From a virus (Duplodnaviria > Caudoviricetes), in the IMG/VR virus record IMGVR_UViG_3300037790_000129, positions 3,502 to 67,501 of that record: 64,000 nt of DNA; one strand, 5' to 3'. Positions 37-53,300 of the stretch are shown here, piece after piece (within the stretch, counting starts at the first letter, position 1; each line of letters begins with the position of its first letter). The position numbers and the translations under genes are program-made. The notes under the pieces are model-generated. The model was not told where the DNA came from. It did not search any database and worked only from the letters and a program-made list of their open reading frames with translations.

Positions 37-861
37 TTAAATGGCAACCTTTGCTTTTATGCTAGGGTGCGGATGGTAGTTGTCTAGTGTAAAATCTGAA
101 TAAGAAAATGAAAATATGTCTTTTATATCAGAATTAATTGTCATTTTAGGTAGCGGCCTTGTTGATCTGCTTAATTGAAGTTTCACTTGCTCTATATGAT
201 TGTTGTAAATATGAGCATCTCCAAAAGTATGAATGAAATCTCCTAGTTTATATCCGCAAACTTGAGCCATCATCATTGTAAGTAAAGCATAAGAAGCTAT
301 GTTAAACGGAACGCCTAAAAACACATCTGCGCTGCGTTGGTACAATTGGCAATAGAGCTTATTATTAGCTACATAAAACTGAAAAAAAGCGTGGCAAGGT
401 GGTAGTGCAGCTTTATTTTGGGCTACATTCTCGCTAAACGATAAATTTGTTTTAGGTAAAACACTCGGATTCCAAGCGGTTACTAACATTCTTCTGCTGT
501 TCGGGTTGTTTTTAAGTGTATTTATTACTTCTTTGATTTGGTCTATTTCTTCGCCATTCCAATTGCGCCATTGCTCGCCATAAATAGGTCCTAGATCTCC
601 TTTTTCATTAGCCCACTCATTCCATATTCTCACTCCATTTTCTTGTAGGTATTTAATGTTGGTATCGCCATTTAAAAACCACAATAACTCGTGTATAATT
701 GATTTTAGGTGTAATTTCTTGGTTGTTACCATAGGAAACCCTTTACTTAAATCAAATCGCATTTGGTAACCAAAGACAGATTTTGTACCCGTACCCGTTC
801 GATCACGTTTTTGGTGTCCGTGAATTAAAATATGCTCTAATAAATCGTGGTATTGCTTCAT
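37..861 (-). CDS. thyA: Thymidylate synthase
   Basis: DRTGTGT, NPNSRR, catalytic [19 protein letters not shown] and GDAHIY motifs. Likely start MKQYHDLL at 861, 1 nt after the upstream HTH gene stop, so it is in the phage operon. Confidence 0.96.
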
Positions 862-862
862 T

Positions 863-1087
863 TTAAAAAACTTTAAATTCAACGTCAGATCCTAAAGCTG
901 CTAAAACTTTATCCATTATTCTCATTGAATCTCCCGTTCCGTTTTCAATGCGATATATTTGGGTATGTGCAGCTCCTTCTCCAAAAGCTTCTTGAGCTAA
1001 TTTTTGTTGCGACCAACCAAGTTGTTGTCTTTTCCACTTTACAAATTGTCCTAGTTTTTTTCGGGAATTTAATTTTATTTTTGCCAT
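863..1087 (-). CDS. XRE-family HTH DNA-binding protein
   Basis: [16 protein letters not shown]...IYRIENG...KVLAALG pattern. Confidence 0.8.
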
Positions 1088-2027: not shown

Positions 2028-2366
2028 CTAATTTTCTAATGATTTAATTTTTGCTTTTTCAATTTCTTCTGCAGCTTCTTTCGGGTCGCTGTAAACCCAA
2101 CCTCCTGGAATGGAGTCTGTAGATTTAAAATGTTCTCCTATCATCCATAATGAAAAATAAGTTCCGCGATCTTGTATTTCAGCAAAACAACTGGGTTTCT
2201 CTAGTGAATAACAGTTTTTAAATTCTTTCATTTTTTTGAATCCGAAACTTAAAAGCATTAGCTTGAAGTTCTTCCAGTATTTTTGCTTCTCTTTTCTTTT
2301 GGCTTTCACATATCTTTCCTGATCTTCTGTAAGTTCTATAATAACGCCTTCTACAATTGTTTTCAT
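2028..2366 (-). CDS. Hypothetical phage protein
   Basis: 112-aa ORF, start overlaps the stop of the MTase gene. Confidence 0.55.
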   Translation of the reverse strand: MKTIVEGVIIELTEDQERYVKAKRKEKQKYWKNFKLMLLSFGFKKMKEFKNCYSLEKPSCFAEIQDRGTYFSLWMIGEHFKSTDSIPGGWVYSDPKEAAEEIEKAKIKSLEN

Positions 2367-4039
2367 TAAGCTACGTTTTTAATTTTTTCGAAATGATTAA
2401 CTATTGCTTTGATATGTGTTGAAAACATAGCTCTTGCTGTGTTTACTTCAACACTATTTCCTATGAACTTTTTCTGATCTGTTTTGGTTCCTACAAGTGT
2501 GTAACCTTTTGGGAATCCTTGTATTCTTAAAAGCTCTTCAACCTCTAGCATCCGCATTTTTATATCTACTATTCCATAATAAGCCATAAACATTTTGATC
2601 TTTACCATTGTTTCACAATCATCATCGTAAACAGGAATTAAAAAACCTTTGCCTTTTTCACAAGAGATTAAACCAAGTGGTTTTTTATCTTGTCTAGCTA
2701 TAATTGTTGGGCTTGGTTTGTGAATTGAATTACCAGGATTCTTGAATTGAGGATTTAGTAAGTAATGGTCTTTTTTCTCGGGTTCTTGATCTTGTGTATT
2801 TACAAATGCGTACTTTGGATTTTGAGTAATATTGCTAAGTCGTTTATCTACACTTGAGGGTTTTAAGCTGCTAAAATGTTGATCAATAAATTTAGTTCTT
2901 ACAGCAGCAAAACGATCTTTTGTAGTTAGAGTAGGGCAGGGTTCATCTTGACTGTGCGGGTGGCCATTACCGTAGTAAGATTGCAAGAAATTTGCATTTA
3001 CAATCCCTAATCTTCCTTGTGTTGAAACTGTTGGGCTTGGGTTTTCTAAAGAAGGAGGTTTGTAATGTCCGTTTTTATTACGTGAATTATACTTTAACAT
3101 AAAATCACATTTCACATAAGCCTGACCGTCTATTGTTTTAACCGTTCCTGCTGGGCTGTTGATGCTAATTACTTTTCCTGCTGGTCTACCTGAATAATAT
3201 TTCTTAATGAAACTATCATCGCCTTTTGCTACAAATTTTACTAACCCAGCATAAATTCTTTTAAGTGTATTTTCTACTAAAGGTTTCTTTCTAGTGAAAA
3301 TAGAATTACCTTCATTTTCTAAATTGAGTACTTGCTTAACGGGTTTCCATTTTTTTAGTGAAGGGAATAAACTCGAATTTTCTGGCAGTTTTTTTATGTG
3401 TGTTTGTTCTGGCCATACTATTGGAAGTTTGCCTTTTGCAAATTGAGCAAAGTATCTTCTTCTTGTAGTATAACCGCCATAATCGGCAGCGTTTAATTCT
3501 TTCCAATCAAAACGATAACCATAAGTCTTAACTTTTTCGGTCCATCTAACATAATCTTTGCCAGCTTTTCTTGAAATTGGCTTGCCGTTTTTATCTAATG
3601 GACCCCAGCTCATAAACTCCATTACATTTTCAATCATTAAATAGTCTGGATTAATTGCATCTAAGTACATAAATAAATGATCTGCTAATGTTCTACTGTC
3701 TGCTTCTCTAGGTAAACCCCCTTTTGCTTTGCTGAAATTCGTGCATTCTAAGCTAGCCCATACTGTTATTATGCAATCGGGGTAAAGTTTTCTAAGTGCG
3801 TTTACTCTTAGTTTTAAAAACCAAACTACTTCGGGATTACGAATATCTTCTATAAAATGTTTAGCTGATGGATGATTTATTTTATGACTTTGAATTGCTT
3901 TTTCATCGTGATTCACACAAGCAATTACTACAGTTTCAAGATCTTTTATTTTATGACTTTCGGTATTGTTAGAAAGGTGAGCGCCGGTAGAAGTTCCACC
4001 GGCGCCACAAAACAAGTCTATTATAAATTCTTTTGGCAT
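2366..4039 (-). CDS. DNA cytosine-5 methyltransferase (orphan)
   Basis: Motif I DLFCGAGG, motif IV variant ASLECTNFS, motif VI IENV, RRRYF, C-terminal RIQGFP...IGNSV. Confidence 0.93.
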   Translation of the reverse strand: MPKEFIIDLFCGAGGTSTGAHLSNNTESHKIKDLETVVIACVNHDEKAIQSHKINHPSAKHFIEDIRNPEVVWFLKLRVNALRKLYPDCIITVWASLECTNFSKAKGGLPREADSRTLADHLFMYLDAINPDYLMIENVMEFMSWGPLDKNGKPISRKAGKDYVRWTEKVKTYGYRFDWKELNAADYGGYTTRRRYFAQFAKGKLPIVWPEQTHIKKLPENSSLFPSLKKWKPVKQVLNLENEGNSIFTRKKPLVENTLKRIYAGLVKFVAKGDDSFIKKYYSGRPAGKVISINSPAGTVKTIDGQAYVKCDFMLKYNSRNKNGHYKPPSLENPSPTVSTQGRLGIVNANFLQSYYGNGHPHSQDEPCPTLTTKDRFAAVRTKFIDQHFSSLKPSSVDKRLSNITQNPKYAFVNTQDQEPEKKDHYLLNPQFKNPGNSIHKPSPTIIARQDKKPLGLISCEKGKGFLIPVYDDDCETMVKIKMFMAYYGIVDIKMRMLEVEELLRIQGFPKGYTLVGTKTDQKKFIGNSVEVNTARAMFSTHIKAIVNHFEKIKNVA

Positions 4040-6836: not shown

Positions 6837-8426
6837 TTAAAATAATGTTGATTGTGATTTTTCTAATTGTAATGGTTCGGGTTTTTGATTCTGCTTTTTT
6901 TGTTTGTCAGATTCTCTTCGTTTTTTCTTGTGTTCTTCCCACTTGGTTCGCTCATCATCAGGGAGCCAATTTTTTGTGGCGCAAGCTGTCATATTAAATA
7001 AATCCCAAAGCTTTTTATCTTTAAAATAAATATGAACTGTACCTTTTTTAAAGAACTTTATTTTAAAGTATGCGCTTTCACAAGTATTATCGAACTTATC
7101 GCCCGTTTTTATTTTGCCTAATTGATTAAATTTTTCTTCTAGTGCATAGCTTAAAGTGCTATAATCTGTTAGGGTGTGTCCTGCTAAATAAGCAATACAT
7201 TTATCTATATCGTTGTAAATATTGTTTGAATCCCACGGGAGTGAAAAATTATCTCCATATTCTTTTAGGCTGTGAGCATCAGAATAAGCTCCGTATTTAA
7301 CGCCATAAGGTAAAATTACCTTTCGGTTTATTTTAAATCTGTCGTTAGTTTTCCATCCCTCAACGTGGCTTCTGTTTTCTTTCCAGTACTCTGTCAACTT
7401 ATCAAAAACATCTTCAACGGCTTGATCCCAAATATTTTTTCGGTTGTTCATTATCATTTGAAAAAATGAGGCTACATTTTCTTTAGTGAACGACATGTTG
7501 GATTGCTGCCTAATAAAAGCTTCAAAATTACTACTAACTTTAGCGCTCATATATTTTTGAACGTCAAGCTCTTTTATCACCTTTCGCCACATGTGCTTTT
7601 TCATTTGCATTGAAAGATGGTTGTATTTTTGTTGCGCTGTTCCTTTGGATAATTCAAAACTATCTTCTTGGTAAAAACCTTCACCTTTAAGAAACATTTT
7701 TTTATAGTGTAAATATTTTTCTCTAGCTTTTAAATACTCAGCATATTCTTTTCTTACTTCTTCATACCTGATATTTAGATTGCCGATTAAATCTTCTCTT
7801 GCTATTTGGTTGTTTACAAAATCGAAATCGAAGTTTAGTTTTTCTTCTTCGCTTTTATCGAAATCAAAATCAAATTTTTCATCCTCTTTGTTGATGGTTA
7901 ATCTAACTAAGGCAATTTCAACATTTGTCTTTCTCTCGGCACTTTTAAATTCAGATTCTAAAAACTCATAACTCCCGTACTGGTTTATTTTGTCGAGTAG
8001 TATTTTTCTTTGTTTGGTGTATGGGTTTCGTATGGTTTCTGCATTGAGTAGGCAAACTATATCTGTTTGTTTTGCTACTTCAATAGCTTTTAATAAATGC
8101 TCATCTCCGTTGCTAAATGGTGGATTCATTACAATTAAATCGAAATAGTAATTCTCATTAAATTGTAGAAAATCGTTACCAATTATAGCAACTTCTTTTT
8201 CATATAGAATTGATTGTAAATCTTGATTCAACTCTATTGCATAAATCTCTCTATTGCTGTGGGTGTGTTCTTGTATGAAGTCTATTATATCTCCCTTACC
8301 TGCGCTTGGTTCTAGTATGCAAAGATCATCTAGTTTATTGTTGTATCGTCTAGAACCCTGAATGTAGGGTTCTAGCATTTTTCTGATTAGAGTTTTTGGC
8401 GTTGGGTAAAATTCTTTTGAAAACAT
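6837..8426 (-). CDS. N6-adenine-type SAM-dependent methyltransferase with DUF4942-like C-terminal domain
   Basis: FYPTP, LEPSAGKG (motif I), DLIVMNPPF (motif IV); C-terminal VEDVFDKLT...GWKTNDRFKINRKVIL and KFFKKGTVHI patterns. Confidence 0.85.
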   Translation of the reverse strand: MFSKEFYPTPKTLIRKMLEPYIQGSRRYNNKLDDLCILEPSAGKGDIIDFIQEHTHSNREIYAIELNQDLQSILYEKEVAIIGNDFLQFNENYYFDLIVMNPPFSNGDEHLLKAIEVAKQTDIVCLLNAETIRNPYTKQRKILLDKINQYGSYEFLESEFKSAERKTNVEIALVRLTINKEDEKFDFDFDKSEEEKLNFDFDFVNNQIAREDLIGNLNIRYEEVRKEYAEYLKAREKYLHYKKMFLKGEGFYQEDSFELSKGTAQQKYNHLSMQMKKHMWRKVIKELDVQKYMSAKVSSNFEAFIRQQSNMSFTKENVASFFQMIMNNRKNIWDQAVEDVFDKLTEYWKENRSHVEGWKTNDRFKINRKVILPYGVKYGAYSDAHSLKEYGDNFSLPWDSNNIYNDIDKCIAYLAGHTLTDYSTLSYALEEKFNQLGKIKTGDKFDNTCESAYFKIKFFKKGTVHIYFKDKKLWDLFNMTACATKNWLPDDERTKWEEHKKKRRESDKQKKQNQKPEPLQLEKSQSTLF

Positions 8427-10285: not shown

Positions 10286-10381
10286 CGTGTATGGATTTAT
10301 ATTTATACTACCTCAAGGCGTATTTAAACGCCCTGAACGCTCCAAGCTTAAAGCCTTTTTATACTCGCTTGGTCGAGTTGG

Positions 10382-11973: not shown

Positions 11974-12042
11974 GTGTGTATGGATTTTATTTGTTAACCT
12001 CCGCCCAATTAAGGCGGAACGCTTGCAGCTTAATAACCTTTT

Positions 12043-12237
12043 TTAAGTCGCTGCATCGACTTTGTTTAACTCTTTCAACTGCTCGGGGAACTCAACGCCT
12101 TGAGTGTTAAAAGCTTCTCTAGTGTCTGCCGTTACTTTCCCGTATATTTTTAAATCTGTTTCAACAAAAAATAAAAGTGTTTCGTTTATCTCTTGCTTTA
12201 ACTCCTGAAGTATTTTTAATTTCTTGCTTTGCTGCAT
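12043..12237 (-). CDS. Hypothetical protein
   Basis: 64-aa ORF coupled to the upstream gene. Confidence 0.55.
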   Translation of the reverse strand: MQQSKKLKILQELKQEINETLLFFVETDLKIYGKVTADTREAFNTQGVEFPEQLKELNKVDAAT

Positions 12238-14504: not shown

Positions 14505-14576
14505 AGCGAGGTAGAGCAGAGGTAGCTCGGAAGGCTCATATCCTTCAGGTCGTTGGTTCGAATCCAACTCTCGCTT
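14505..14576 (+). tRNA. tRNA with CAT anticodon (Met; initiator-like body with atypical determinants)
   Basis: Acceptor AGCGAGG/TCTCGCT, D arm GAGC/GCTC, anticodon arm GAAGG-CTCATAT-CCTTC, T arm GTTGG-TTCGAAT-CCAAC; CCA not encoded. Confidence 0.9.
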
Positions 14577-14622
14577 CAGAAATCCAATCGTGAGGGTAGC
14601 TCCCATAGCGTAAAGGGTTGAA

Positions 14623-14694
14623 GCCTTACTAGCTCAATTGGTTAGAGCGTCTGGATTAACTAGGAGGTTCAAGGTTCAAATCCTTGGTAAGGTT
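14623..14694 (+). tRNA. tRNA-like gene with a shortened (5-nt) anticodon loop; pseudo-tRNA or mimic, Asn-like
   Basis: Acceptor GCCTTAC/GTAAGGT, D arm GCTC/GAGC, T arm CAAGG-TTCAAAT-CCTTG, but anticodon arm TCTGG-ATTAA-CTAGG. Confidence 0.7.
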
Positions 14695-14805
14695 CAAATT
14701 TAGAGAGGATCGAAAGCCATAGGCTTGGCATAGAAGCTGTCATTTGGTGAGTAGTAGCAAAGTAGATTCAAAGCAGGAATTATGCGCCTGTTTAGTTATT
14801 TGGAT

Positions 14806-15404: not shown

Positions 15405-15661
15405 TGGTTAAAATTTTAATTGTACTGGTGATCTACTCAATCCTTAAAGACGTGCCAAAACTTATAAGTGTATTTAAGTTGGACTATAAGGATTATATGG
15501 ATAAAAAGATTAAAAAATACAAGCTATTAAAAGAGCGTATTTCTAACAAATCTACCATTAAAGAAGAAAATAAAAATACTGTAGTGAGAGTCGTGGCTGT
15601 AATTATAGTTATGACTAAGATTTCAATTTTACTAACCCTTATATTTAAAACGAATGGATAA
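15404..15661 (+). CDS. Hypothetical membrane protein
   Basis: Hydrophobic N- and C-terminal segments. Confidence 0.5.
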   Translation: MVKILIVLVIYSILKDVPKLISVFKLDYKDYMDKKIKKYKLLKERISNKSTIKEENKNTVVRVVAVIIVMTKISILLTLIFKTNG

Positions 15662-15974
15662 GCATACTTATAATATAGGAGCTGCAATGCAAGCCTTGGA
15701 AGAAGGTAAGCGCGTAAGACGATTGGCTTGGCCGTCAGAGATGGTTTTTGTTTTTAGACAAGTTCCGGCTAAAATCAACAAAAAGATTTTACCTAAAATG
15801 AATAGCTTACCGCCATCGGTGAAAGCTTATTTTAAAGAGAAATTTGAAACTTCAGAACAAGATTTTTTCTACTACAAAAATCAAATCGCGTTGGTGAAAC
15901 CAGACAATCAAATTACCGGTTATTCACCTACTATGGAAGATTTATTATCAGAAGATTGGTTAATACTTGATTAA
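15654..15974 (+). CDS. DUF2829 / Tad2-like (Thoeris anti-defence 2 family) protein
   Basis: A..AL.EGKRVRR.AW...FVF.QVP...Y.NQIA.V....ITGYSP...DLLSEDW family pattern. Confidence 0.8.
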   Translation: MDKHTYNIGAAMQALEEGKRVRRLAWPSEMVFVFRQVPAKINKKILPKMNSLPPSVKAYFKEKFETSEQDFFYYKNQIALVKPDNQITGYSPTMEDLLSEDWLILD

Positions 15975-16220: not shown

Positions 16221-16661
16221 ATGAAAATACTAGCATTAGATCCGGCAACAGTAACCGGTTTTTGTACCTCAACAACTTCCGGAGTTTGGAATTTAAAAAC
16301 AAAAAGCTACGAAAGTAAAGGTATGCGCTTGATTAAAATGCGCTCATCAATAGATGAAATTTGTAAAGCCGAAGGGATCACTTTTATTGTTTACGAAAAA
16401 CCAGGAGGAAGAAACTACAACGCTTTAAAATCTCACTCTAATTTTGAAGGTATTATTCAGGCTTATGCTTTGGATAACGGAATAGAGTACAAAGGTTATT
16501 CAGCTTCAGAAATTAAAAAGTTTGCAACCGGAAAAGGAAACGCTAACAAGCAAGCAATGATTGATGCTTGCATAAAAACATACGGATTTACACCCGAAGA
16601 TGATAACCAAGCAGATGCGGTTCATTTATACAACTTAGCAAAATCAGAATTCAAAATTTAA
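16221..16661 (+). CDS. RuvC-like Holliday junction resolvase
   Basis: ILALDP, IVYEKP, SEIKKFATGKGNANK, DDNQADA acidic catalytic residues. Confidence 0.85.
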   Translation: MKILALDPATVTGFCTSTTSGVWNLKTKSYESKGMRLIKMRSSIDEICKAEGITFIVYEKPGGRNYNALKSHSNFEGIIQAYALDNGIEYKGYSASEIKKFATGKGNANKQAMIDACIKTYGFTPEDDNQADAVHLYNLAKSEFKI

Positions 16662-16664
16662 CCA

Positions 16665-16946
16665 ATGACAGAATTAAAAAAATTTGAAGCCGTAGGGCCA
16701 TACATTTTAGTAAAGCTAGACGAAAAGCAGATTAAGAATACGGCAGGATTAAATATGCCTAACAGAGAAGTGTTAACCGGCGAAGTGATTTCGGTTGGAA
16801 ACGGAAGTCCGGGATGGCCAGAAATGAAGTGTAAAGTTGGCCAACGAATAAAATGGCACCGACATTCAGGAGAGCGATTAAAAGTTGACGGAGTAGAGTG
16901 TATTATTCTGAACGAAGAGAAACGCGAAATTCAAGGAATAATTTAA
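16665..16946 (+). CDS. groES: Co-chaperonin GroES (Cpn10), phage-encoded and divergent
   Basis: ILVK...mobile loop...GEVISVGNG...KVGQRI...G..LKVDGVECIILNE. Confidence 0.85.
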   Translation: MTELKKFEAVGPYILVKLDEKQIKNTAGLNMPNREVLTGEVISVGNGSPGWPEMKCKVGQRIKWHRHSGERLKVDGVECIILNEEKREIQGII

Positions 16947-16966
16947 CCAATATAAATTCGAATAAA

Positions 16967-17419
16967 ATGAAAATCAAGTACAATTTAGAGCCTTTAAAAA
17001 ATAAGGAGAACTTAAACATTTTTACGCGATACATTAATGGCTTCTCAAAAGAAGAAGAAGTTATTGAGCTTATCGATCAAATTAAGGTAGTTGAAGAAGA
17101 TACCGATCTTACAGAGGAGCCAGATCAACCTCAGAAACAAAAGCCAAATCCCCAAGAAGAATCTAAATCAGATTCTGAAATTGAAATTGATCAATCGGTA
17201 AATCCTTTAGAAGAAAAGGAGGAAACCGACAATGATAAGGTTGACGGATTGGAGTGCACAGCAGAAGAATTGGAAGAGGAATTTGAAAAAGCTATTTCAG
17301 GTCAAAAAGCAGACCTCATCGCCTTTGCAGAAAAGTACGGTATTGATTTAGAAAATGCCACCAAAAATGAGCAAAGAAAACTTGCTATAACCGAGTGGTA
17401 CAACGACAAGATTAATTAA
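16967..17419 (+). CDS. Acidic protein with a C-terminal HeH/Rho-N-like helical module
   Basis: Likely start MKIKYN at 16967; D/E-rich middle; KADLIAFAEKYGIDL...K...I. Confidence 0.55.
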   Translation: MKIKYNLEPLKNKENLNIFTRYINGFSKEEEVIELIDQIKVVEEDTDLTEEPDQPQKQKPNPQEESKSDSEIEIDQSVNPLEEKEETDNDKVDGLECTAEELEEEFEKAISGQKADLIAFAEKYGIDLENATKNEQRKLAITEWYNDKIN

Positions 17420-17426
17420 AAAAAAC

Positions 17427-17448
17427 AAGGGTAGCTAAGGCTACCCTT
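17427..17448 (+). other. GC-rich hairpin upstream of groEL (weak terminator or stabiliser)
   Basis: AAGGGTAGC-taag-GCTACCCTT; U-tail short. Confidence 0.5.
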
Positions 17449-17468
17449 TAAACAACTTTATAAGATAT

Positions 17469-19082
17469 ATGTTACAAGACAAGATTAAGAATATTCACAC
17501 TAACGAAGAGTTGCGAAAAGCAATGCGCGAAGGAGTGAAAGAAGTGGCCGATATTGTAAAATCAACACTTGGCCCAAGAGGTAGAAATGTAAGTTTACCA
17601 TTCCCGGGAGGTAGATCGCTTATTACAAAAGATGGAGTTTCAGTTGCGATGCAAGTAAGGCTTAAAGACCCGTTGAAAAATATGTGGGCCTTAAAAACCA
17701 TAGAGGTTGCAAGCAAAACAAACGAAGATGCTGGTGATGGAACCACTACGGCAACTGTTTTGGCACAGGCAATTATAGAAGAAGGATTAAAAAACGTAAC
17801 GGCCGGAGCCAATCCTATGGATCTTAAAAAAGGAATAGACAAAGCCGTTGAAACCATTACTAAACAACTAGAAACAATCGCGCTTCCGGTAAAACAGGAT
17901 AGCAAGCAGATTACACAAGTAGCCACCATTAGTGCCAATGGGGATAAACAACTAGGAAGTTTAATTGGGGAAGCTTTTTCTAAAATTGGGCCGGAAGGCC
18001 ACATTGAAGTAAAACATTCTAAAAACGGTAAAACATACCTAGACTTTATAGAAGGTTATGAAATTGAATCCGGATATATCTCTCCGCTATTCATTAATAA
18101 CTTTAAGAAAAGATCTGTGGAATTTTCTAACCCGTTGATTTATGTTGCTGCAGAAAAACTCAAAAAATATGAGGACATTCAAGCGGTTGTAGAGTTTGCT
18201 TTAGAAAATAAGCGCCCGTTGGTTTTTATTGCTAATGACGTAGAGAATGAAGCCTTATCTTTACTTTTAAATAACGCTAACTACCAACGTAAACCAGAAG
18301 AGCGTTTGCCCTTTGTTGCTATTCAGGCTCCATCACACGGCAAGGAACAAGCAGAGTATTTACAAGATATTGCAATGGCCACAGGAGCATCAGTTGTAAG
18401 TAAAGACCTTGGACTAGCCATAGATCAAGTGAACGAATCTCACTTAGGTACTTCAGATAAAATTATTATTCAGGAGCGTAAAACAAATATCATAAAAGGA
18501 GATAGCGATAAAAAGTCTATCGAAAACAAGATAGAAGAATTGCGCGAGAACCTGAAAGAAGAAAAAGACGAAACGCTTCAGCGAAAGCTAAAAAATAGAA
18601 TTTCTAAACTTAACGGACTTTCGGCCGAATTGAATATTGGTGTTTATTCAGAAACCGAGTATTATGAAATTCGCGATCGTATTGAAGATGCTGTGAAAGC
18701 TACTCGCGCGGCTAGTGAAGAAGGAGTGGTTCCAGGCGGAGGTGTAGCTTTAGTTAGAGCAATGAAAGCGCTTAAAAAGTTAAAGGTAGAAAACCAAGAC
18801 CAGAAAACAGGAGTGGCGATTATTCAAAAAGCTATTGAAGCCCCGATTCGTCAAATAGTAAAAAATGGCAACGGAAAACCAGACGTGGTAATTGATAAAT
18901 TACTTCGCGCAAGAAAATGGAGCCAAGGCTATGATTTACGAAACGACAAGTTTGTAGATATGATGGAAGCCGGGATAATAGATCCTAAAAAAGTAACGCG
19001 TGTAGCTTTACAGAATGCTGCAAGTGTTGCCGGTTTAATGCTTACAACAGAAGGAGCTTTAACCTTTGCAGAAGAAGAGTAG
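17469..19082 (+). CDS. groEL: Chaperonin GroEL (Cpn60), phage-encoded
   Basis: TLGPRGRNV, ITKDGVSVA, AGDGTTTATVLA, RIEDAVKATRAA, VVPGGGVAL and GIIDPKKVTRVALQNAAS motifs. Confidence 0.96.
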   Translation: MLQDKIKNIHTNEELRKAMREGVKEVADIVKSTLGPRGRNVSLPFPGGRSLITKDGVSVAMQVRLKDPLKNMWALKTIEVASKTNEDAGDGTTTATVLAQAIIEEGLKNVTAGANPMDLKKGIDKAVETITKQLETIALPVKQDSKQITQVATISANGDKQLGSLIGEAFSKIGPEGHIEVKHSKNGKTYLDFIEGYEIESGYISPLFINNFKKRSVEFSNPLIYVAAEKLKKYEDIQAVVEFALENKRPLVFIANDVENEALSLLLNNANYQRKPEERLPFVAIQAPSHGKEQAEYLQDIAMATGASVVSKDLGLAIDQVNESHLGTSDKIIIQERKTNIIKGDSDKKSIENKIEELRENLKEEKDETLQRKLKNRISKLNGLSAELNIGVYSETEYYEIRDRIEDAVKATRAASEEGVVPGGGVALVRAMKALKKLKVENQDQKTGVAIIQKAIEAPIRQIVKNGNGKPDVVIDKLLRARKWSQGYDLRNDKFVDMMEAGIIDPKKVTRVALQNAASVAGLMLTTEGALTFAEEE

Positions 19083-19083
19083 T

Positions 19084-19902
19084 ATGAAATATTTTTTAGA
19101 TACGGAATTTATTGAAGGACCTCAACAAAAGAGGTTCTTCGGTATTCCATTTGGAGAAACAAAACCCACCATCGATTTAATTTCAATAGGTGTCGTGTCT
19201 GAAGATGAACGAGAATATTACGCAGTTTCTAAGGACTTCAATTTAAAAGAAGCTTGGAATAGGTATCAGCTAAAACAAGTAAGTGGTGATGCAAGAAACC
19301 GCTATCCGGATGGAATAAAACAATATTGGATTCGCGAAAATGTATTGGAACCAATATTCAATGAGTTATATAATATCTACTTAGAAGAAGTTAAGTCTTA
19401 CAGGAAACAAGGAGATATAGATACTTATTTCGTAAATATTGAATATAAGTTTACTTACTCTAATTTCAAAAAGCTTTTAAATAAATACGGTAAAACCAAT
19501 AAACAAATTGCTAAAGAAATTTATCATTTCATCAATCCCGAAATTTTAATGCCTAATTTTTCAAAATCTAAAGGATGGAAAAATGATAAAAACCCTGAAT
19601 TCTACGCTTACTATGCAGACTATGATTGGGTGGTGTTTTGTTGGTTGTTTGGATTAATGAACGACTTACCTAAAAGTTTTCCAATGTACTGCCGTGATTT
19701 AAAACAGATGCTTGATGATGCTGTAGAAAACGAGATTAAAAAACAATGTTTCAACAGCGGCAATCATACTATTTTAAGTTATGATGATGCTTTAAAATCT
19801 ATTAAAAAGGATTTTAACTACCCAAAACAACAAAACGAGCATAACGCATTAGAAGATGCTCGTTGGAATAAAAAATTGTATAACTTTTTAAATAAACTGT
19901 AA
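19084..19902 (+). CDS. DEDDh 3'-5' exo(ribo)nuclease, Rv2179c/RNase AS-like
   Basis: YFLDTEF, DLISIG, YADYDWV, PMYCRDLKQ and HNALEDARW motifs; start at 19084. Confidence 0.85.
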   Translation: MKYFLDTEFIEGPQQKRFFGIPFGETKPTIDLISIGVVSEDEREYYAVSKDFNLKEAWNRYQLKQVSGDARNRYPDGIKQYWIRENVLEPIFNELYNIYLEEVKSYRKQGDIDTYFVNIEYKFTYSNFKKLLNKYGKTNKQIAKEIYHFINPEILMPNFSKSKGWKNDKNPEFYAYYADYDWVVFCWLFGLMNDLPKSFPMYCRDLKQMLDDAVENEIKKQCFNSGNHTILSYDDALKSIKKDFNYPKQQNEHNALEDARWNKKLYNFLNKL

Positions 19903-20213
19903 TGAAAGTAATAACCCCAGGACACAAATATCTTTTAGAAGGATTTGAAACAGAAAAAGGAAATCAAGAAATCCAATTTATCGAAAAAGCTCCAATTTCA
20001 GAAGGAAGCACAGAATTAGCAACCTTGAATGACGGAACTACCAATGAAGAGCTTCTTGAAGTTTTAATTAACCGAATGAATCATCTTCAAAGTAAATTCC
20101 CTTGTCGCGAAAATGCAATTGTTATAACTAAATTGGAGGAATCTTTAATGTGGTTAGAAAAAAGAACAAAAGACCGCAAAAAAAGAGGTGTAGAAGGCAA
20201 ACAGGAGAAGTGA
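19902..20213 (+). CDS. Tad1-like immune-signal sponge (Tad1 helical-hairpin family)
   Basis: GTTNEELLEVLINRMNHLQ..FPCRENAIVITKLEESLMWLEKRTKDRKKRGVEG matches the recalled Tad1 pattern G..D.DLLEIV.DRL..FQ.GPF..REN..A.TH.EEALMW...R..DR..R.V.G. Confidence 0.78.
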   Translation: MKVITPGHKYLLEGFETEKGNQEIQFIEKAPISEGSTELATLNDGTTNEELLEVLINRMNHLQSKFPCRENAIVITKLEESLMWLEKRTKDRKKRGVEGKQEK

Positions 20214-27697: not shown

Positions 27698-28225
27698 ATG
27701 AAAGCAAGCGACAAGATAAAGACATTCATAAAGAAGTATGAAACGCTACACGATGGCGACCTTACACAAATTGGCTTACAACCAAAATTAGATGGTGCCG
27801 GTATATGGACAGAAGGTTGGGGCCACCCTATGAGAAAGGGAGGTAAGTATATGCGCTTAGAAGATTACCCAAGCTTATCAAGCGTGATGCCTTATAGAAA
27901 AATTAAGACCTTAGAAGATGCTGATAGATATTTTGATAAGGACTTATCCAAGACTGAAAAACTGGTAAACATATACCTAAAAATAAAGGTTAAACAACAC
28001 CAATTTGATGCGCTAGTATCACACGCATACAACTGTGGTATCTCAAAAACTTTGTATCGATTAGTCAACAAAGAAGCTCCCGAGGAGGAGATTAAAAAAT
28101 GGATTACCACAAGATATGTTACTTCTAGCGGAATCTACTTTAAAGGTTTGCAGTACAGAAGAAATGATGAGTGGGAAATCTTTGCCGGTATTAACTATGA
28201 TCGCGAGTATAAATTAAGTGTATAA
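27698..28225 (+). CDS. Endolysin, GH24 lysozyme
   Basis: YETLHDGDL..IGLQPKLDGAGIWTEGWGH (E..D..T triad), QFDALVSHAYNCG, GL..RR..E. Confidence 0.9.
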   Translation: MKASDKIKTFIKKYETLHDGDLTQIGLQPKLDGAGIWTEGWGHPMRKGGKYMRLEDYPSLSSVMPYRKIKTLEDADRYFDKDLSKTEKLVNIYLKIKVKQHQFDALVSHAYNCGISKTLYRLVNKEAPEEEIKKWITTRYVTSSGIYFKGLQYRRNDEWEIFAGINYDREYKLSV

Positions 28226-28863
28226 TGCAGGGTATTACAGACTACATAATAGAATTTAGAGAAACACACAAAACAGAGTTTGAAGTTTCGGGCCATAGCC
28301 TAAAAATCAATCCAAATTTCAACCAACCTAAGTGGATTAATAGAATTGGCAGAGTGGTTTCTGTTCCGTTACATCAAGAAGTTGAAAGTCCTATTAAAAA
28401 AGGATATGAAGTTATAGTGGTTCATACCTCTTTACTTAATGATTTTTATGATAAGGTAGGAAAATCAAGAAGCTCATTTTTAGTAGATGATAAAAAAGAT
28501 TATTTCCGGTTCACCCCTAATCTTATTGTAATGTATCGAGAAAGCAATAAGCACGAATGGAAATCTCATTTAGACAGCGTATTTATTTCGCCTATAAAAA
28601 TAGACAAAGAAAAAAAGAAAACACCTAAAGGATTGCTGCTTCCAGATTCGATTTTTGAAAAAGAAAAAGGCTATAAAGGCAACCAAACCCAACAAGGCAT
28701 TGTAGCCTACTCAAACAACAACCTTACAAAACTAGGTATTTATGTTGGTGATGAAGTGATGTTTAAAATTGATCGGGAATATGAGTTTAAGATAAACGGT
28801 AAGACCTTATGGCATATGGAAAATAACGATATTATTCTTCATAAAAAAACAAACTATAAATAA
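28225..28863 (+). CDS. Tandem GroES-fold protein
   Basis: C-terminal half VFISPI...KTPKGLLLP...GIV...G..VGDEVMF....EFKINGKTL..M...DII; N-terminal half GRVVSVP...IKKG.EVIV. Confidence 0.6.
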   Translation: MQGITDYIIEFRETHKTEFEVSGHSLKINPNFNQPKWINRIGRVVSVPLHQEVESPIKKGYEVIVVHTSLLNDFYDKVGKSRSSFLVDDKKDYFRFTPNLIVMYRESNKHEWKSHLDSVFISPIKIDKEKKKTPKGLLLPDSIFEKEKGYKGNQTQQGIVAYSNNNLTKLGIYVGDEVMFKIDREYEFKINGKTLWHMENNDIILHKKTNYK

Positions 28864-45808: not shown

Positions 45809-47320
45809 ATGGCAGGAGGAGCAGCATATAGAAGATTACAAAAACCTAATGATGGTTTAAGTCAAAGCGCACAATATTGGGGCGGCCAAGCAGCGCGCAG
45901 AAACAATATGTTTTTGCGGAATAAACTTGCAGACGACAGAATAAAAGCAGCCGAAGCTAGAGAAGCGCAGAAAAAGTTTGATGAAGATTTTGCTACCAGT
46001 TTATCTGGCATAAAAGCTTTTGACACCAAAAATAATGACCTTAATACCTTGGTTATTCGCGGAGTTGAGCGAGCAAAAGAAAAGATGTATGAATATGCAA
46101 AAATAGCAGATCCAACAAATACTTCGGTTACACGAGAAGAGAGAATTCAAGCTATGGCCGAAATGAAAAAATTAGAAGCTATTCCGGAAAAGCTAAAGAT
46201 AATGTCAAGTCAAATAACTAAGCAAATTGAAGCTAATCAAGCAGGATTGGCTGAAGGTACACTTAGAGCAACACCGGAAGCAGATGATTTTATGAAGTCT
46301 GGATATGATTTAGGAGAAGATAATGAAGTGGTGAGCGATGTTTTTATTAAAGATGGAGAAGTTTTTTATGGATATAAAAACAAAGAAAACGGAAAAGTTC
46401 AAACTATATCTTTTAAGGAAGTTTCTAGCGGACAAATGCCAAGCTACCTACCAACTTGGAATAGAGAAGATGCTTTGGCAAAAGGTAATAAGCTAATGGG
46501 AACATTCACTAATACCAATCAAGAAGGTTTTACAACCACAGAAGATGTTACTATAAACCCACAAAGCCAAAAATTAGCAGAAGCTTTATCAAACAAAACA
46601 TTTTCGGTTTCTGAAAATGGAGAAAACAGTGTTCCTTTAAAAAATTACCTATTAGATATGGGCCTAGACCCTAACACTCAGATTGATGAACAGCAATTGC
46701 AAGAAATAAGAAGTCAATTTCAGCAAGACTTAGGAGCCAATTTAGAATTATCAAAAAGTAAAACTATTGATCAAGACGGTATTACTTCTCGTATGCGAGA
46801 AAACAGAGCCAAAAAGAAAGAAGAAGATCAATACTCTACACCAGAAATTGCCATTGATCAACAAACTGGAAAACCGGTTAAAAAGACCATAGAATTACAT
46901 AGCGCAAGTGATTTACCTACTAAACAAGAAGGTTATTTGGTAACATTTGATGGTGGAAATTCATTGATGCTTGAAGAAAATGAAAATGAAAAAACAGAGG
47001 TAGAAAATGTTACAGTTACCGACCAAGGTAAAGTTTTTGCTGATGTTCAAAAATTTAAAAGAGTTTATGATGATGCTACCGCTAAATACGAATGGAAAGA
47101 AGTTAAAAACAGAAGAGGCGGTGAATTAGGAATGGAGGAGTTAAGCGCACAAAAAGCTAACAACTTATTTAGAAATTCAACTCTTAGAAAAGAGAATGGA
47201 GATCGATTTAAAAACGCAAAAGAATTCGTTGACTACACTAAAGCGAAATACGAAAAGCAAGGTGGAAAAAGAAAACCACTAAGCGCAGAAGAAATTAGAA
47301 GAACTTACGGAACTGAATAA
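45809..47320 (+). CDS. Ejection (internal virion) protein 2
   Basis: 503-aa helical protein between ejection proteins 1 and 3. Confidence 0.55.
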   Translation: MAGGAAYRRLQKPNDGLSQSAQYWGGQAARRNNMFLRNKLADDRIKAAEAREAQKKFDEDFATSLSGIKAFDTKNNDLNTLVIRGVERAKEKMYEYAKIADPTNTSVTREERIQAMAEMKKLEAIPEKLKIMSSQITKQIEANQAGLAEGTLRATPEADDFMKSGYDLGEDNEVVSDVFIKDGEVFYGYKNKENGKVQTISFKEVSSGQMPSYLPTWNREDALAKGNKLMGTFTNTNQEGFTTTEDVTINPQSQKLAEALSNKTFSVSENGENSVPLKNYLLDMGLDPNTQIDEQQLQEIRSQFQQDLGANLELSKSKTIDQDGITSRMRENRAKKKEEDQYSTPEIAIDQQTGKPVKKTIELHSASDLPTKQEGYLVTFDGGNSLMLEENENEKTEVENVTVTDQGKVFADVQKFKRVYDDATAKYEWKEVKNRRGGELGMEELSAQKANNLFRNSTLRKENGDRFKNAKEFVDYTKAKYEKQGGKRKPLSAEEIRRTYGTE

Positions 47321-50300
47321 TGAGCAAAGTAACCAAACCCACACCGCAACAACTTAGTCAAGAAGAATACGATGCTAAGTTAGAGAAAAATGTAAATTTG
47401 ATGCTTGATAAGGGCGCGCCAGAGCAAGATGTAAAAGCTTATGTCAAAGATTTTAGTACGCGTTTTTCTGTAAAAAAAAAAGAAGAATCGAATTCTGCAC
47501 CACCTCAACAAAATTTGGGATCAAATGGGCTTACGGGAAACACTTCTTTGGCTTCACCCAAAATTCCTAAAGCACAAGAAAATGTTTTAAAGCTTCAAGA
47601 TCAAGCAGCAAAGGAAATCCAAAGGGAGTACAAACAGAAAGGTATTCAGGAGTATGAAATTTCTAACGAGCAAATTCAAAATCGCGTTTTAGAAATTGAA
47701 AACAGAGATACCAATTTAAAAAAAGAAAAAGCAGTTGAAAGTTCTAAAGAAGAAATAAATTGGTTTACAGATTTAAAAAACCAACTTAAAAGCGGTACTG
47801 CAGAAACACTTGCCGGATTGTATGGAATACCTATGTTTTTAGAAAAAATGAAAACTGGTATTGCTCTATCTATGATGCCAGATAAGTATAGTGAAGAGTT
47901 TAATAAATTGTCTGTTGATGATCGGGAAAACTTAATTAAGTTAATGAATCCTGAAAACAAGCTAGGTACAATTGTTGGCGATGATTTACAAGATCACTTT
48001 ACTCAAATTGCAGATAAAGCAGCAGAAAACACCATAAAGTTTGAAGGGAACATTGTTGATGATATTGCTAATGGAAACTACAATCAAGCAGCTTACAGAG
48101 TGGTTCAAGGCGCTACCAACTCATTACCTTCTTTAGTAGTTGCAGGTACACCAGGAGGATTTGTAATGCTAGGAGCAGGATCGGCTTCGCAAAAACAAGA
48201 AAGACTTGAACGAGAAGGCGAAAGTTTAGATATGAAGTCATTGGCCAACTCAACCGTAAATGGCGTTGTTGAGGGAGGATTTGAAAGAGTTACCGCAGGG
48301 ATGCTTAAACCTTTACGACAAATAGCACTTGGTAATAAAGAAGTCGCGAAAGAGGTTTCTGAAAGTTTGGTTAAAACCGTAATTAAAGATTTTGGGAAGG
48401 AATCGGCATCTGAAGCCGGAACGGTTGTCATACAAGAAACGGCCGATAAATTGTTTAAGGGAGAGGAAATTAGTCTAATTAATATTGCTAAAAACGCTGC
48501 AGATGCAGCTATAATTGGCGGAGTTATGGGTGGTGGAACCGGAGCTACTACCGGTTTAGCCGGATATATTGCTAACAAGCGTATGACACCCGAAAAAAAG
48601 GCTAAAATAATAGCCAACACAGAGCGCGCTTCAAAATTCAAAGAACAGTCAAAAAACCCTAATCTTGATGAAGAGATAAAAAAAAGCCTAGAAAACAAAG
48701 CTACAGAATTAGAATCTGAAGCAAACGCCATCATTGATGAAGAGATAAAAAAAGCTGAATCAATGACAGAGGAAGATACTAAAGAATTAGTACGCATTGA
48801 TGGTGAAATTTCTAAAGAAGTTAAAAACCTTCAAAAAATAGAAGATAGCGAACTAGATGAAGATTCTAAAGAAGATTTAATTAAGGACAAAAAAAATCAG
48901 ATTCAAAAACTTAAAGAAGAAAAGGATAAAATTGTAAATAAAGAAGTTGATGAAGCCGAAACACCAACCGAAGAAACAATTATTTATCATGGAACTGATA
49001 ATGAATTTGACAAATTCGATGACAATAAAATATCAAGTAAAAGCGGTAATAATGGTTTCTTAGGTAAAGGCACATACTTTACAAATAATAAAGATTTCGC
49101 AAGTAGATGGGGGAAAAGAATAGTAGCAAAAAAGCTAGATAAAAATTTAAAACTTTATAAGCATACTAAGAAACAAGCAGAGGAATTAGGTTTAGATCCT
49201 AACAAAAGCTTATTGGAGTTAACAAATTATGGCGAAAAAACTAATTACATAACTGAATTATTAAAATCGAACGGTTATGAAGGAGTTTATTTTAAACATA
49301 ATTCTAATGAAAGTGAATATATGATTTTTGATCCAAATTCACTAGAAAACTACAAAGATAATAATGAAAACCAAACGCCAACCGAAGAAACAACGCAGCC
49401 AGAGGTGGAAGAAGCAACACCTGAAACCGAAGTTGAACCAGAAGAAGTAAACCCGTCTGATTCGACACCTTTAGAAACTAATACCAATGAAACAACACCG
49501 GCAGAAAATACTCAACCTGATGGAGAAGTTCAATCTACAACTTCACCAAGTAACCCAAAACAACAAAACCAAGACGTACCGGCCCCCGTTGAACCTACAA
49601 CAAGTGAAAGAAAAACTGAAGTAGTAGAACCAAAAATAACTACCAAAAGGATAAAATCTCACAAAGGGGCCGAATATGATGTTGATTTTGATAATGAAGG
49701 CGAAGTAAAATCCATTAGAAGCGCCAAGACGGGAAAAGAAATAAAGAAGTGGCGCTATGATAAAAAAACTGGGAAACCAATAGGTAGAAACGCTAATTAT
49801 GCTAGAATTGAAGCAGATGCTTACGGAACGAAAACCGAAGGAAAAATAAATGAAGAGGATTTAGAAAAAAGAATGAAAGCGCTACACGAATTTATACCTT
49901 CAAATCCTTATGAAATAGCACTACACGCATTAGCTTCAGGAGTTGCAATAGATTTAGAAGATGCAAGTAAAGAAACTGGTGCCTCTAAATCTGAATTAAA
50001 ATGGGCTTCTGGTAACGGGTTTTCTAAAAAAGGAGAAAGACTTACCGTTGACCAATTAGCACACGCGTTATGGGAAGAATCTGATCTGGATTATGATACA
50101 TACGATATAAAAAACGCTATTATCGATGTTTTAAAAGAATTTAGCAGCGTAGTAAACGCTCAAGAACAAATACTGGAAATTACAGATCTAGAAACCGAAA
50201 AAGCGTTCGAAGAAGAGTTAAGAGCATCTATGTCTAACTGGACTCCGGAAGAATTCGCTATCTTTGAAGCAAATAGAGTAGATGATGAATTTATTGATCA

Positions 50301-53300
50301 ACTTACAGACGAAGAAGCTATTGAGTATTTTCAAGATAAACTAGATGAATATGAACAAGGACAACAAGCAACCATACAACAGCAAGAACAAGAAGCTATC
50401 ACGAGCAGACAGGCTCCTAGCGACAGCAATGAAGCGCAGAAAGGCGAAACAGAAAAAGAAACCAAACCAAAAGAATTAGATGAAGATAATTCTGACCAAG
50501 ACAACGATCAAGATCCTGACGATGATGTTCAGGCAATGGGTTTTACCGGTAAAAAGAAACCAAGAAATTTATCGTTAAGTGATGGTGGTCCAGTATTAGA
50601 ACAAAATAGATTTCAAAGAGTTTTTAAAAGATTTTGGAATAATACTTTTAAAACAAATCAAGGCGCCACAAAAGAGGTTGCTGAAACTATACGCTCTAAA
50701 GATCGCGAAGTGAGTGCTTTTACAGATGCTATTTCTTACGAAGCATCAAGACTGAAGAGCATCACTAAGTCTATAAAGAAAAAAAGCAAAAAGAAAATTA
50801 ATGAGCGTTTAAGAGCTGTAAATGACTATTTAAATGGCGATAAAAATGCAGATATTTCATTTTTAAACCCAAATCAAATTGCAGATTTAGATGCTTTAAG
50901 GTATAGAATTGACAGTTTATCAGATCAATTAAATACAAAAATCGAAAAACAGATTGAAGAAGCTGAAAAACAACTTCAAAAATACAAAGAAGGAAGTTTA
51001 GTGCATACCGCTATTTCTGAAAGCATTGCGCGTAAACAAGCTTTAATTGATACGATAAAATCTAATAAAGGAAAATATATTTACAGAAGTTATGAAGCTT
51101 TTAGTAATCCTAAATACTTAGAAGCCTTAATGAGTACACGACCCAATAAAGAGGAAAGAAGAAGAATACGAAACGCTGTAAATTATTTAATGCAAAACAG
51201 TAGTAATTTATTCGGAAGCCAAATTACTGAAGCTGAAGCCAGAAAACAGATTTTTGAGTATTTAGACAGCTTAAAAGGTAATAAAGATTTTATTACCGAA
51301 GTATCTAATGGAAAAGCTGACGATCCATTCCTTAAAAAAAGAAAAGATATACCAGAGCCAATTAGAGAATTGCTAGGAGAAGCTAAGGATCCTATTTACA
51401 ATTATGTAAACACTACATTTAAAATAAGCAATTATATAGCCAATTTAGAATATCAAGACAGGCTTCTTGAAGCGCTAAAAAATACTGGACTAGCAACTTA
51501 TGAAGGTAAAGAAGGCTATACTAAATTAGTGCCTGATAGTGAAGGGTGGAATACGTTGCACGGTATTTACGTTCCTATAGAAATGTCCGAATCAATAGCC
51601 GATTTACAACCTTTAAAAACCATTGAAGATGGCTTCTATAAATCCTGGGTAGCTCTTTCAGGATTAACTAAATTAGGAAAAACCGTACTCTCACCAACAA
51701 CTACCGCACGTAACGTGATTAGTGGTATATTTTTAGGACTTAATTCAGGTTTCTTTTTTATGAGTAATCCTAAGCGTACAGCAACAGCCGTTAGTCAAGC
51801 TTGGGGAACCGCTAAATCTAAAACTCAATTAAAAGCAGAACGTCAAAAATTAATTAAATTAGGTATTTTACTTGATGGAGCTGTTTCTGGTGAAATAATG
51901 GAAACATTAAACGATTTCAGTAAATCTATAGATCGATTAGTAAGTAAAAATCCATTAGAAAAAACAATGGAGATTTTACAAACAGCCTACGCAATGGGTG
52001 ATGATACTTATAAAGTTATAGGGTTTTATGAGTACAAAAATCGATATATGAAAGCAGGATTTACAGAAGTAGATGCGGAAGCTAAAGCTGCAGAAAGAAT
52101 AACAAACACATTCCCTACTTACAGTAAAATACCTAGAAACATTCAGAAGCTAAGGAGAATACCAGTTGTAGGAACCTTTGTTTCTTTCCCGTATGAAGCA
52201 ATAAGAACCACTAAAAACGGACTTGATTATATTATTGAAGATATTGAAGCCGGTAGAACAAAAATGGCAATGCAACAGGCCGCAGGTATGATGGTAGCTT
52301 CTGGAACCTTATTTGCACTTTCAGCTTTTACGCGTTCGATGTTTGGTTTTGATGATGAAGATGATGATAAAATTAGAGATATGTTGCCGGAATGGCAGAA
52401 AAACAGTACCCTTATATACACAGGAAGGGAAAATGGAAAACCTACTTTTATAGATGGTACTGCAATATTTCCGGCAGAAACCTACATAAAACCTTTACGT
52501 GTTTTATTTGAACAACGAGAGGGGAGAGATCTTAAAGATAAATTAAAAATTGCTACCCAAGAATTAGCAGCACCCTATTTAGGATTGGATATTTCTTTTA
52601 AAACTGCAACAGATTTATTGAGAAACAAAGATGAATATAGCCGCGATATTTATGAGGGAGAAAACTTAATAGATGGCATCGTAAATAATCCTGATAAAAT
52701 TACAGATTACATTTTGAAAAAAGCGGGGCCAGGTGTTTACAATAACTTTACTGAATTTATGCGAGCAAACGAAATAAATTCAGAATTCTTTGGAGATAAA
52801 TATACCAGTTATGGTAAAGAATATACCAACCAAGAAGCATTATTAGCTTTGTTTGGTTTTAGACTTTCTACTATTAATTACGCTAGTGGTATGACCGGTT
52901 TAGGTTATGAAGCAAAAGAAAAATACAATTTAGAGCGATCTGAAATAAGTCAAAAATTAAAATCTACTCGTAATATTGATGATGAAAAAATTCAGAAATT
53001 AGTTAATGACTATAAAAAAGAAAACGAGGAAATAAATAAAGGGATTATGATTTCTATAAAAGGCGCTCGTAAACTAGGAATGACTGATATAGAAATTAAA
53101 AAAGCTTTAAAATTAAGCGGTTATTCTCAAAGCGATTTAAGATACTTACTAAGAGGTGTAACCCCTCCTTTAAAAGATATAAGTAGAAGCAGCCAAAAAA
53201 GAACAAAAACAAAGTTAGAAATTAACTATAAAGGGCAAGACGATAAGAAGGAAATCGTTGTAGGAAACTATCAATCAAATATTAGAAAATTCAATGCCAA

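Follow-up and report, generated by a model that had tools for sequence, protein, structure and literature searches.

A groES-X-groEL operon in a Mesonia prophage: a probable phage-owned chaperonin system partly insulated from its host

The stretch of viral DNA analysed here (the window; 64,000 nucleotides (nt), positions 3,502 to 67,501 of the IMG/VR record IMGVR_UViG_3300037790_000129) carries a set of chaperonin genes, in which a third gene, here called X, stands between the genes of a GroES and a GroEL. We think it probable, all parts of the explanation taken jointly, that these genes, in the order groES - X - groEL, form an operon for a group I chaperonin that belongs to the phage itself, and that their products are partly insulated from the host and fold phage proteins during lytic growth. 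The initial annotation of this DNA had proposed a complete GroES-X-GroEL locus at positions 16665-19082, and the three open reading frames (ORFs) were confirmed, with Cpn10 and Cpn60_TCP1 matches above the cut-offs.

In the ORF listing five plus-strand genes are closely packed over 16.2-19.9 kb of the window. A RuvC-like Holliday-junction resolvase (16221..16661; Pfam RuvC 24.5 bits; phrog_159 2.3e-22) is followed by the 93-amino-acid (aa) GroES (16665..16946; Cpn10 36.7 bits, cut-off 21.1; phrog_3188 1.2e-10), by X (150 aa; 16967..17419), by the 537-aa GroEL (17469..19082; Cpn60_TCP1 212.9 bits, cut-off 34.3; phrog_5725) and by a DEDD-type 3'-5' exonuclease (19084..19902; Pfam Rv2179c-like 37.9 bits; phrog_2259 6.5e-49). 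The stop codon of the resolvase gene is 3 nt ahead of the groES start. The exonuclease gene, directly 3' of groEL, has the same position as the exonuclease gene after GroEL in Cellulophaga phage Calle_2. The resolvase 5' of groES is of the RuvC type in the window and of the RusA type at the related loci L047 (1643-2074), L027 (5490-5921) and L030 (883-1317). This is a non-orthologous replacement: the position is the same in function, the family differs.

The Cpn60_TCP1 match spans residues 26-527 of GroEL. The best match in the PDB was an ancestral (resurrected) Fibrobacteres-Chlorobi-Bacteroidetes GroEL (1e-136), and phage EL gp146 (6tmt) was matched at 8e-39 over residues 17-448. Individual residues were compared in an alignment with Mesonia GroELs and with a GroEL of the E. 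coli type, whose source was a Salmonella contig of the phage collection. As the initial annotation had claimed for the ATPase motifs, all residues checked at the nucleotide site (T30, G32, D52, D87-T91, D398, G414-416 and D495) are kept. With an intact ATP site the phage protein is predicted to be an active, ATP-driven chaperonin, and this forms one part of the explanation that we favour as a whole. The apical region is remodelled, as had been noted: the string quoted in the initial annotation is present, five to six residues are inserted just past apical helix I, and the KAPGFGDRRK segment is also altered. In the apical groove L234 is replaced by Q and V264 by N. Outside the groove, S stands in place of the allosteric R197, and K and D in place of E461 and S463, respectively, both of them inter-ring residues. 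The Mesonia GroELs retain M234, L237, V263, V264, R197, E461 and S463. The GGM tail is missing, again in agreement with the earlier description, and the protein ends with ...TFAEEE; its whole clade and other phage GroELs are likewise without the tail, which the Mesonia GroEL has.

The mobile loop of GroES, for which the sequence AGLNMP had been pointed out, reads ..NTAGLNMPNRE... Here G24 is kept and I25, V26 and L27 are replaced by L, N and M, which gives G-L-N-M instead of the usual G-I-V-L. In the alignment three residues are missing from this loop and four from the roof hairpin. The corresponding tripeptides elsewhere in the clade are L-D-M, L-E-T, I-D-A and L-E-V, thus position 26 is N, D or E throughout, and position 234 of GroEL across the phage clade is Q/E/Q/S/K/Q. 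The claim of co-diverged interfaces was borne out to the extent that polar replacements are found on both contact sides (V26N in GroES, L234Q and V264N in GroEL), while the host keeps M234, L237, V263 and V264. The GroES is 81% identical to that of L047, 53% to that of L027 and 42% to that of L030, and its best PDB match is Cpn20. The ratio of nonsynonymous to synonymous substitution rates (dN/dS) in the comparison with L047, in which synonymous sites are saturated, was 0.09 for GroES and 0.05 for the N-terminal 175 codons of GroEL, both genes being under purifying selection.

The chaperonin is an old phage lineage and not a copy of the host gene. In a set of 5.8 billion protein clusters, identities to the window GroEL above 50% were limited to five proteins (85%, 62% and three of 51-52%), and the cellular Bacteroidota GroELs, those of Mesonia included, had 47-49%. 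In maximum-likelihood trees a clade of seven with 100/100 support comprises the window protein, its five closest relatives and the L050 GroEL, and it is placed outside that of the cellular Bacteroidota (96/96). With other phage GroELs (Calle_2, phi14:2, elemoC, immuto and cr108) it groups weakly (80/90) and over long branches. The comparison with host Cpn60 that had been suggested thus identified a phage-only clade, not a paralogue of the host groESL, and recent capture of the host operon was ruled out by this topology together with the 48% identity to the Mesonia GroEL. A different situation was seen in Bacteroides phage SJC03 (L046) and the DAC phages, whose GroEL nests in the cellular Bacteroidales (99/92 with a Bacteroidaceae protein) and is located at the very end of linear records. 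Unlike the window clade, this GroEL would seem to have been captured recently from a host, unless it is an artefact of assembly or packaging.

The product of the middle gene has no Pfam family; its description rests on an AlphaFold2 (AF2) model, synteny and purifying selection. Its start was taken as the ATG at 16967 because this start is kept in the L047 orthologue. The possibilities that X is a chance ORF, or a 173-aa ORF overlapping groES, were ruled out by the conserved start and by dN/dS values of 0.04-0.12 (N-domain 0.04, C-domain 0.07, whole protein 0.12). The AF2 model, made on the family alignment, begins with a conserved N-terminal mini-domain (residues ~1-42), continues as a disordered linker of acidic character (43-98) and ends in a C-terminal domain of three helices (99-150; helices 99-111, 114-124 and 134-149), with predicted local distance difference test values of 80-92, ~53 and ~90, respectively. 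An exhaustive phmmer search of 1.84 billion representative proteins yielded 12 relatives. The N-terminal motif of the family is roughly MKYNL..LK, followed by NG and then by EV..LD.I, the C-terminal one is roughly FA.KYGIDL.EATNNE.R..AI..WYN, and the linker varies in length and charge. The initial annotation had called the gene acidic and HeH-like. It is acidic (isoelectric point 4.3); the HeH-like character is plausible but not proven. In Pfam and PHROGs nothing usable was found, including no match to PF12949, PF02037, PF07498 or PF21488; one family member gave a weak YqbF_HeH match (E 0.092). Foldseek searches of the PDB and BFVD gave no significant match, the C-domain superposing on a HeH/LEM protein with a root-mean-square deviation of 1.1 over 39 residues but at E 2.3. 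The Atlas structural neighbours of residues ~100-150 were Rho_N, SAP, YqbF_HeH and Ku-C-terminal clusters (template-modelling scores 0.64-0.74 over ~47 residues), a weak match by which the predicted C-terminus may be described as HeH/SAP/Rho_N-like; the Atlas search with the N-domain was uninformative.

The contexts of X relatives were read wherever their surroundings could be read, and an X-family gene was found in the GroES-GroEL slot at eight of nine related loci. The order GroES - X - GroEL is shared by the window and L047. Additional ORFs occur in the slot at L050 (GroES - 109-aa ORF - X - GroEL), L054 (GroES - X - 93-aa ORF - GroEL) and L052/53 ('a'-type ORF - X - 55-aa ORF - GroEL). At L027 the order is GroES - 'a' - X - GroEL, with an X made up of the N-domain and a lysine-rich tail, at L049 it is GroES - X - GroEL, with an X made up of the N-domain and an acidic tail, and L048 begins at a contig end with the X C-domain followed by GroEL. 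L030 has GroES - 'a' - GroEL and no X. Since the flanks are mosaic (RuvC in the window, RusA elsewhere), GroES, X and GroEL appear to travel together. The clade appears to be rare. Pattern searches for X relatives and clade-type GroES in the GTDB species representatives and IMG/VR found none, only cellular GroES of at most 34% identity, and tblastn searches with GroES and X against isolate phages returned nothing except host GroES present as contamination; one relative of X is an annotated protein of Capnocytophaga canis (WP_400134132.1). A homology of X with the middle ORF of the phi38:1/Calle phages was considered and ruled out (no BLASTP match, hhalign probability 0.1). Within the explanation that we favour jointly, X would be a clade-specific accessory protein of the chaperonin module.

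A further co-chaperonin gene lies between the lysozyme and terminase genes, at 28225..28863 on the plus strand. Its 212-aa product is a tandem GroES (Cpn20-like), whose C-terminal half is above the Cpn10 cut-off (29.9 bits on residues 124-204) and which matches phrog_13932 over the full length (2.6e-28). The AF2 model (predicted template-modelling score 0.66) matched GroES chains and, with both halves and over 223 columns, the tandem Cpn20 of Chlamydomonas (7ekq_R). In the isolate-phage database homologues were found only in the GroEL-carrying phages phi38:1, phi40:1 and Calle_1-3, which make up seven of the nine Cellulophaga records with GroEL; the phi18:3 group, which is closer by terminase, has neither GroEL nor tandem GroES. 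The tandem GroES is probably a second co-chaperonin of the system.

The rightward phage operon that holds the chaperonin genes runs on into the structural genes. A CIRCE (controlling inverted repeat of chaperone expression) heat-shock operator is absent at the locus. A scan for sigma-70-type promoters gave no signal above chance, the consensus being ill-suited to Bacteroidota. As the genes are packed in an operon reaching the structural genes, with groES only 3 nt past the resolvase and no CIRCE element, expression with the lytic programme seems most likely, to judge from gene arrangement. The 49-nt spacer between X and groEL contains a 9-bp GC-rich hairpin (17427..17448, not assigned to a strand; folding energy -15.1 kcal/mol, z -4.2, none of 200 shuffled sequences being equally stable). 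In L047 the stem is retained, one outer pair being compensatory, and a T6 run comes after it there. The hairpin may serve for attenuation, for processing or for mRNA stability, and through it the two halves of the transcript may be adjusted in ratio or stability.

The window is part of a record that IMG/VR classifies as a provirus, from a metagenome contig of 179.6 kb. The record itself has no tyrosine integrase and no terminal repeats. On the parent contig a 448-aa integrase (Arm-DNA-bind_5 and Phage_integrase; L039 11854-13200) lies ~0.9-2.2 kb past the right end of the window, followed by the host genes for Pol IV and DnaE2; the left flank is also of host origin and encodes an aldehyde dehydrogenase, CorA and TruA. 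The element is bracketed by a perfect 22-bp direct att repeat, CGAATCCTGTCGCGATCACAAA, with one copy outside the IMG/VR record at L039 13350-13371, and the left copy overlaps the 3' end of the host target tRNA-Arg(TCT) (L041 11489-11566). The proteins encoded in the flanks share 90%-identity clusters with proteins of Mesonia sp. HuA40 and M. sediminis, and the accessions of the HuA40 aldehyde dehydrogenase, Pol IV and DnaE2 are consecutive, so the site is presumably empty in that strain. Taken together, the integrase, the 22-bp repeats, the tRNA-Arg gene and the Mesonia genes on both sides identify a temperate prophage of ~70.5 kb, and the position of the integrase, att repeat and tRNA-Arg gene outside the record means that IMG/VR trimmed the integrase end. 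The same features of the parent contig ruled out an unintegrated fragment of a large lytic phage. The initial annotation was therefore right in calling the phage temperate; it is small only in relative terms. The flanking sequences identify the host as a marine Mesonia species (Flavobacteriaceae). The large terminase is 45% identical to that of the Cellulophaga podophages phi18:3/phi46:3 and 37% to that of the Flavobacterium 'elemo' phages, and counterparts to the portal and giant virion proteins are found among the PHROGs. Among the giant proteins, that of 2019 aa (47320-53379, plus strand) has an ART-PolyVal (ADP-ribosyltransferase) domain according to precomputed Pfam matches, and the adjoining 1507-aa protein matches phrog_14478, a virion structural protein.

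In the explanation that we prefer, the operon would belong to a rightward lytic-cycle transcription unit of this ~70.5-kb prophage, related to the Cellulophaga/Flavobacterium podophages. The partner of the phage GroEL would be its own 93-aa GroES, probably joined by the distal tandem GroES of 212 aa, and the polar swaps on both sides of the contact between the mobile loop and helices H-I would insulate the phage pair at least partly from the host GroES and GroEL. The most likely task would be the folding of phage proteins in lytic growth, e.g. the capsid protein and the 1507- and 2019-aa virion proteins. The N-domain of X probably docks on the chaperonin, and the linker with the HeH/SAP-like domain probably tethers a partner, either nucleic acid or a client. 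Several points weigh against this explanation. The notion that the polar swap biases pairing to cognate partners depends on the published GroEL-GroES contact of E. coli, I25/V26/L27 against L234/L237/V264. Other positions of the groove are still hydrophobic in the phage GroEL: Y199, F204 and L259 are kept, and 203, 237 and 263 are L, V and L, thus cross-reaction with the host partners is possible. As for X, L030 belongs to the clade and lacks it, L027 and L049 have the N-domain with nothing but a charged tail, and the linker is acidic at some loci and lysine-rich at another. The C-domain is moreover joined to different N-termini in P0183 and P0185-P0187, and P0183, in what may be a head-morphogenesis setting, sits among genes for 601-, 323- and 353-aa proteins, with no chaperonin. 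If the phage GroES and GroEL mixed freely with the host chaperonin and merely raised folding capacity in the burst, the sequence changes would be tolerated drift. We find this unlikely. The mostly hydrophobic groove and the retained N265 would agree with it, and so would the fact that loop position 2 or 3 is polar in 23% of viral GroES, phages with GroES only, hence reliant on the host GroEL, among them (PMC5649160). Polar residues at GroES position 26 and GroEL position 234, however, are a clade-wide feature under strong purifying selection, and the host GroEL keeps the canonical residues.

It is also conceivable, if somewhat doubtful, that X has nothing to do with the chaperonin, and that the spacer between GroES and GroEL is a permissive slot for small early genes (regulators, anti-defence proteins, DNA-binding proteins), of which X is the commonest by descent. 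The slot does receive non-homologous occupants, such as the 'a' family (L027, L030, L052) and ORFs of 109 aa (L050), 55 aa (L052), 93 aa (L054) and 90 aa (Calle_2), its neighbourhood is rich in the anti-defence genes Tad2, Acb2/Tad1 and ArdA, and the predicted HeH/SAP-like fold would suit nucleic-acid binding. Such a slot would not explain why all N-domain relatives of X with readable context are found in it, down to GroEL identities of ~50% and in spite of mosaic flanks, and why the dN/dS values of the X domains equal those of GroES and GroEL. Expression of the chaperonin in the lysogen, with improved stress tolerance of the host, seems very improbable to us. The phage is temperate, and the hairpin between X and groEL could mark a separate transcript, but there is no heat-shock operator, the genes are set between resolvase and exonuclease in an operon reaching the structural genes, and the same module occurs in the strictly lytic phi38:1/Calle phages. 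The stress-proofing of the lysogen put forward in the initial annotation thus found no support in this polycistronic phage operon; its wider interpretation holds in part, namely in that the phage pair is complete and far from that of the host, and that X is tied to the module at eight of nine loci. A more elaborate version of the explanation that we prefer, a four-component viral chaperonin machine, is quite a long shot. In it X would be an adaptor, with the N-domain on GroEL and the HeH/SAP-like domain delivering or tethering a capsid-type client or a DNA-bound complex, the 93-aa and the tandem GroES would together build a hetero-oligomeric lid (three tandem chains and one single chain would, for example, fill the seven positions, cf. 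chloroplast Cpn10/Cpn20), and E461K, S463D and R197S would give a ring cycle unlike that of bacterial GroEL.

Other features of the window can be listed briefly. Genes of anti-defence type flank the chaperonin genes, coding for a Tad2-like protein (15654-15974; 50.2 bits) and an Acb2/Tad1 hairpin domain (19902-20213; 25.2 bits, just below the cut-off of 27); an MBL-fold protein with a weak Anti-Pycsar Apyc1 match (58335-59063) is also of this type. The chaperonin modules of the relatives adjoin the same anti-defence genes, plus ArdA. Two Pistol self-cleaving ribozymes (RF02679; 66 and 63 bits, Rfam gathering score 34.5) are located on the minus strand at 10306-10378 and 11993-12061, both in leaders of leftward early genes, and they probably account for the repeated 'hairpin-GAGGU' leaders remarked on separately in the initial annotation. 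A tRNA-Met and a second tRNA (14505-14577 and 14623-14695, plus strand) are both above the Rfam tRNA threshold; ARAGORN gives the second one the anticodon UUA, with which it would be ochre-suppressor-like. Genes of the leftward arm (2366-4039, 6837-8426 and 37-882, minus strand) code for two large proteins like DNA methyltransferases, of which one has DUF4942, and for a thymidylate synthase.

The biochemistry of phage chaperonins has so far come almost wholly from jumbo phages, whose chaperonins need no co-chaperonin. In the locus described here, a temperate phage whose host genus is marine and culturable has a full GroES/GroEL set that is compact and apparently self-contained. The set includes a conserved third gene, for which no context other than the chaperonin operon is known. 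Should X bind the chaperonin, it would represent a new kind of chaperonin accessory factor; should the polar swap at the interface confer orthogonality, the two proteins would form a naturally insulated chaperonin system and possibly a tool for co-expression. If neither is true, the locus is one further member of the described virioplankton GroES>GroEL group.

That group was described by Marine et al. (2017, PMC5649160), who found viral GroES>GroEL operons to be widespread, reported for two estuarine contigs and Cellulophaga phage phi38:1 that a short ORF stands between GroES and GroEL, and already proposed that altered mobile loops favour the viral GroEL. In other phages the arrangement is Cpn10 - 90-aa ORF - GroEL - exonuclease (Calle_2), GroEL>GroES (the 60-kb elemo phages) or GroES>GroEL (Immuto), and the crAss-like phages phi14:2 and cr108 have a GroEL. 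The phenomenon, the gene order and the idea of orthogonality are thus not new; the initial annotation, in stating what was known, had left out both the GroES-ORF-GroEL modules of ~60-100 kb Bacteroidota phages and virioplankton contigs and the published proposal of orthogonality. What we did not find described is the distinct clade, the conserved two-domain X family tied to the GroES-GroEL slot and unrelated to the middle ORF of phi38:1, the matching polar changes in GroEL (234/264), and a module of this kind residing in a temperate phage that has integrated.

It is useful to compare the window system with other chaperonins. With the bacterial proteins of E. coli and Mesonia it shares the group I architecture, all nucleotide-binding residues and the co-chaperonin gene upstream; it differs from them in its 48% identity to the Mesonia GroEL, in the shorter LNM loop of GroES and in the third gene inside the operon. 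EL gp146, OBP gp246 and AR9 gp228 of jumbo phages are also phage-encoded GroEL homologues without a GGM tail, but they act without a co-chaperonin (PMC5934643) and have diverged much further, whereas the window GroEL has a dedicated GroES and is much nearer to bacterial GroEL. As in the chloroplast Cpn60/Cpn10/Cpn20 system, one Cpn60 is encoded together with a single-domain and a tandem-domain co-chaperonin, a likeness of architecture, not of descent. T4 gp31 is a phage GroES that retargets the host GroEL to the capsid protein. Like gp31, the tandem protein of the window is a GroES-fold phage co-chaperonin, and it adjoins morphogenesis genes; T4, unlike the window phage, has no GroEL of its own, and gp31 is a weak structural match to the tandem GroES (1g31, E 0.48).

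The phages phi38:1, phi40:1 and Calle_1-3 (Pervagoviridae, lytic podophages of ~72.5 kb) have the same order, Cpn10 - short ORF - GroEL - 3'-5' exonuclease, and a separate tandem GroES of ~200 aa belonging to phrog_13932. Their hosts are also Flavobacteriaceae, their large terminase is related to that of the window phage at a lower level, and their GroEL is likewise without a GGM tail and polar at position 264. The differences are just as clear: the GroELs are ~37% identical and their grouping (80/90, long branches) is not that of a resolved sister pair, the middle ORFs are non-homologous, and the phi38:1/Calle phages are lytic isolates, whereas the window phage has an integrase and is integrated in the chromosome of its Mesonia host.

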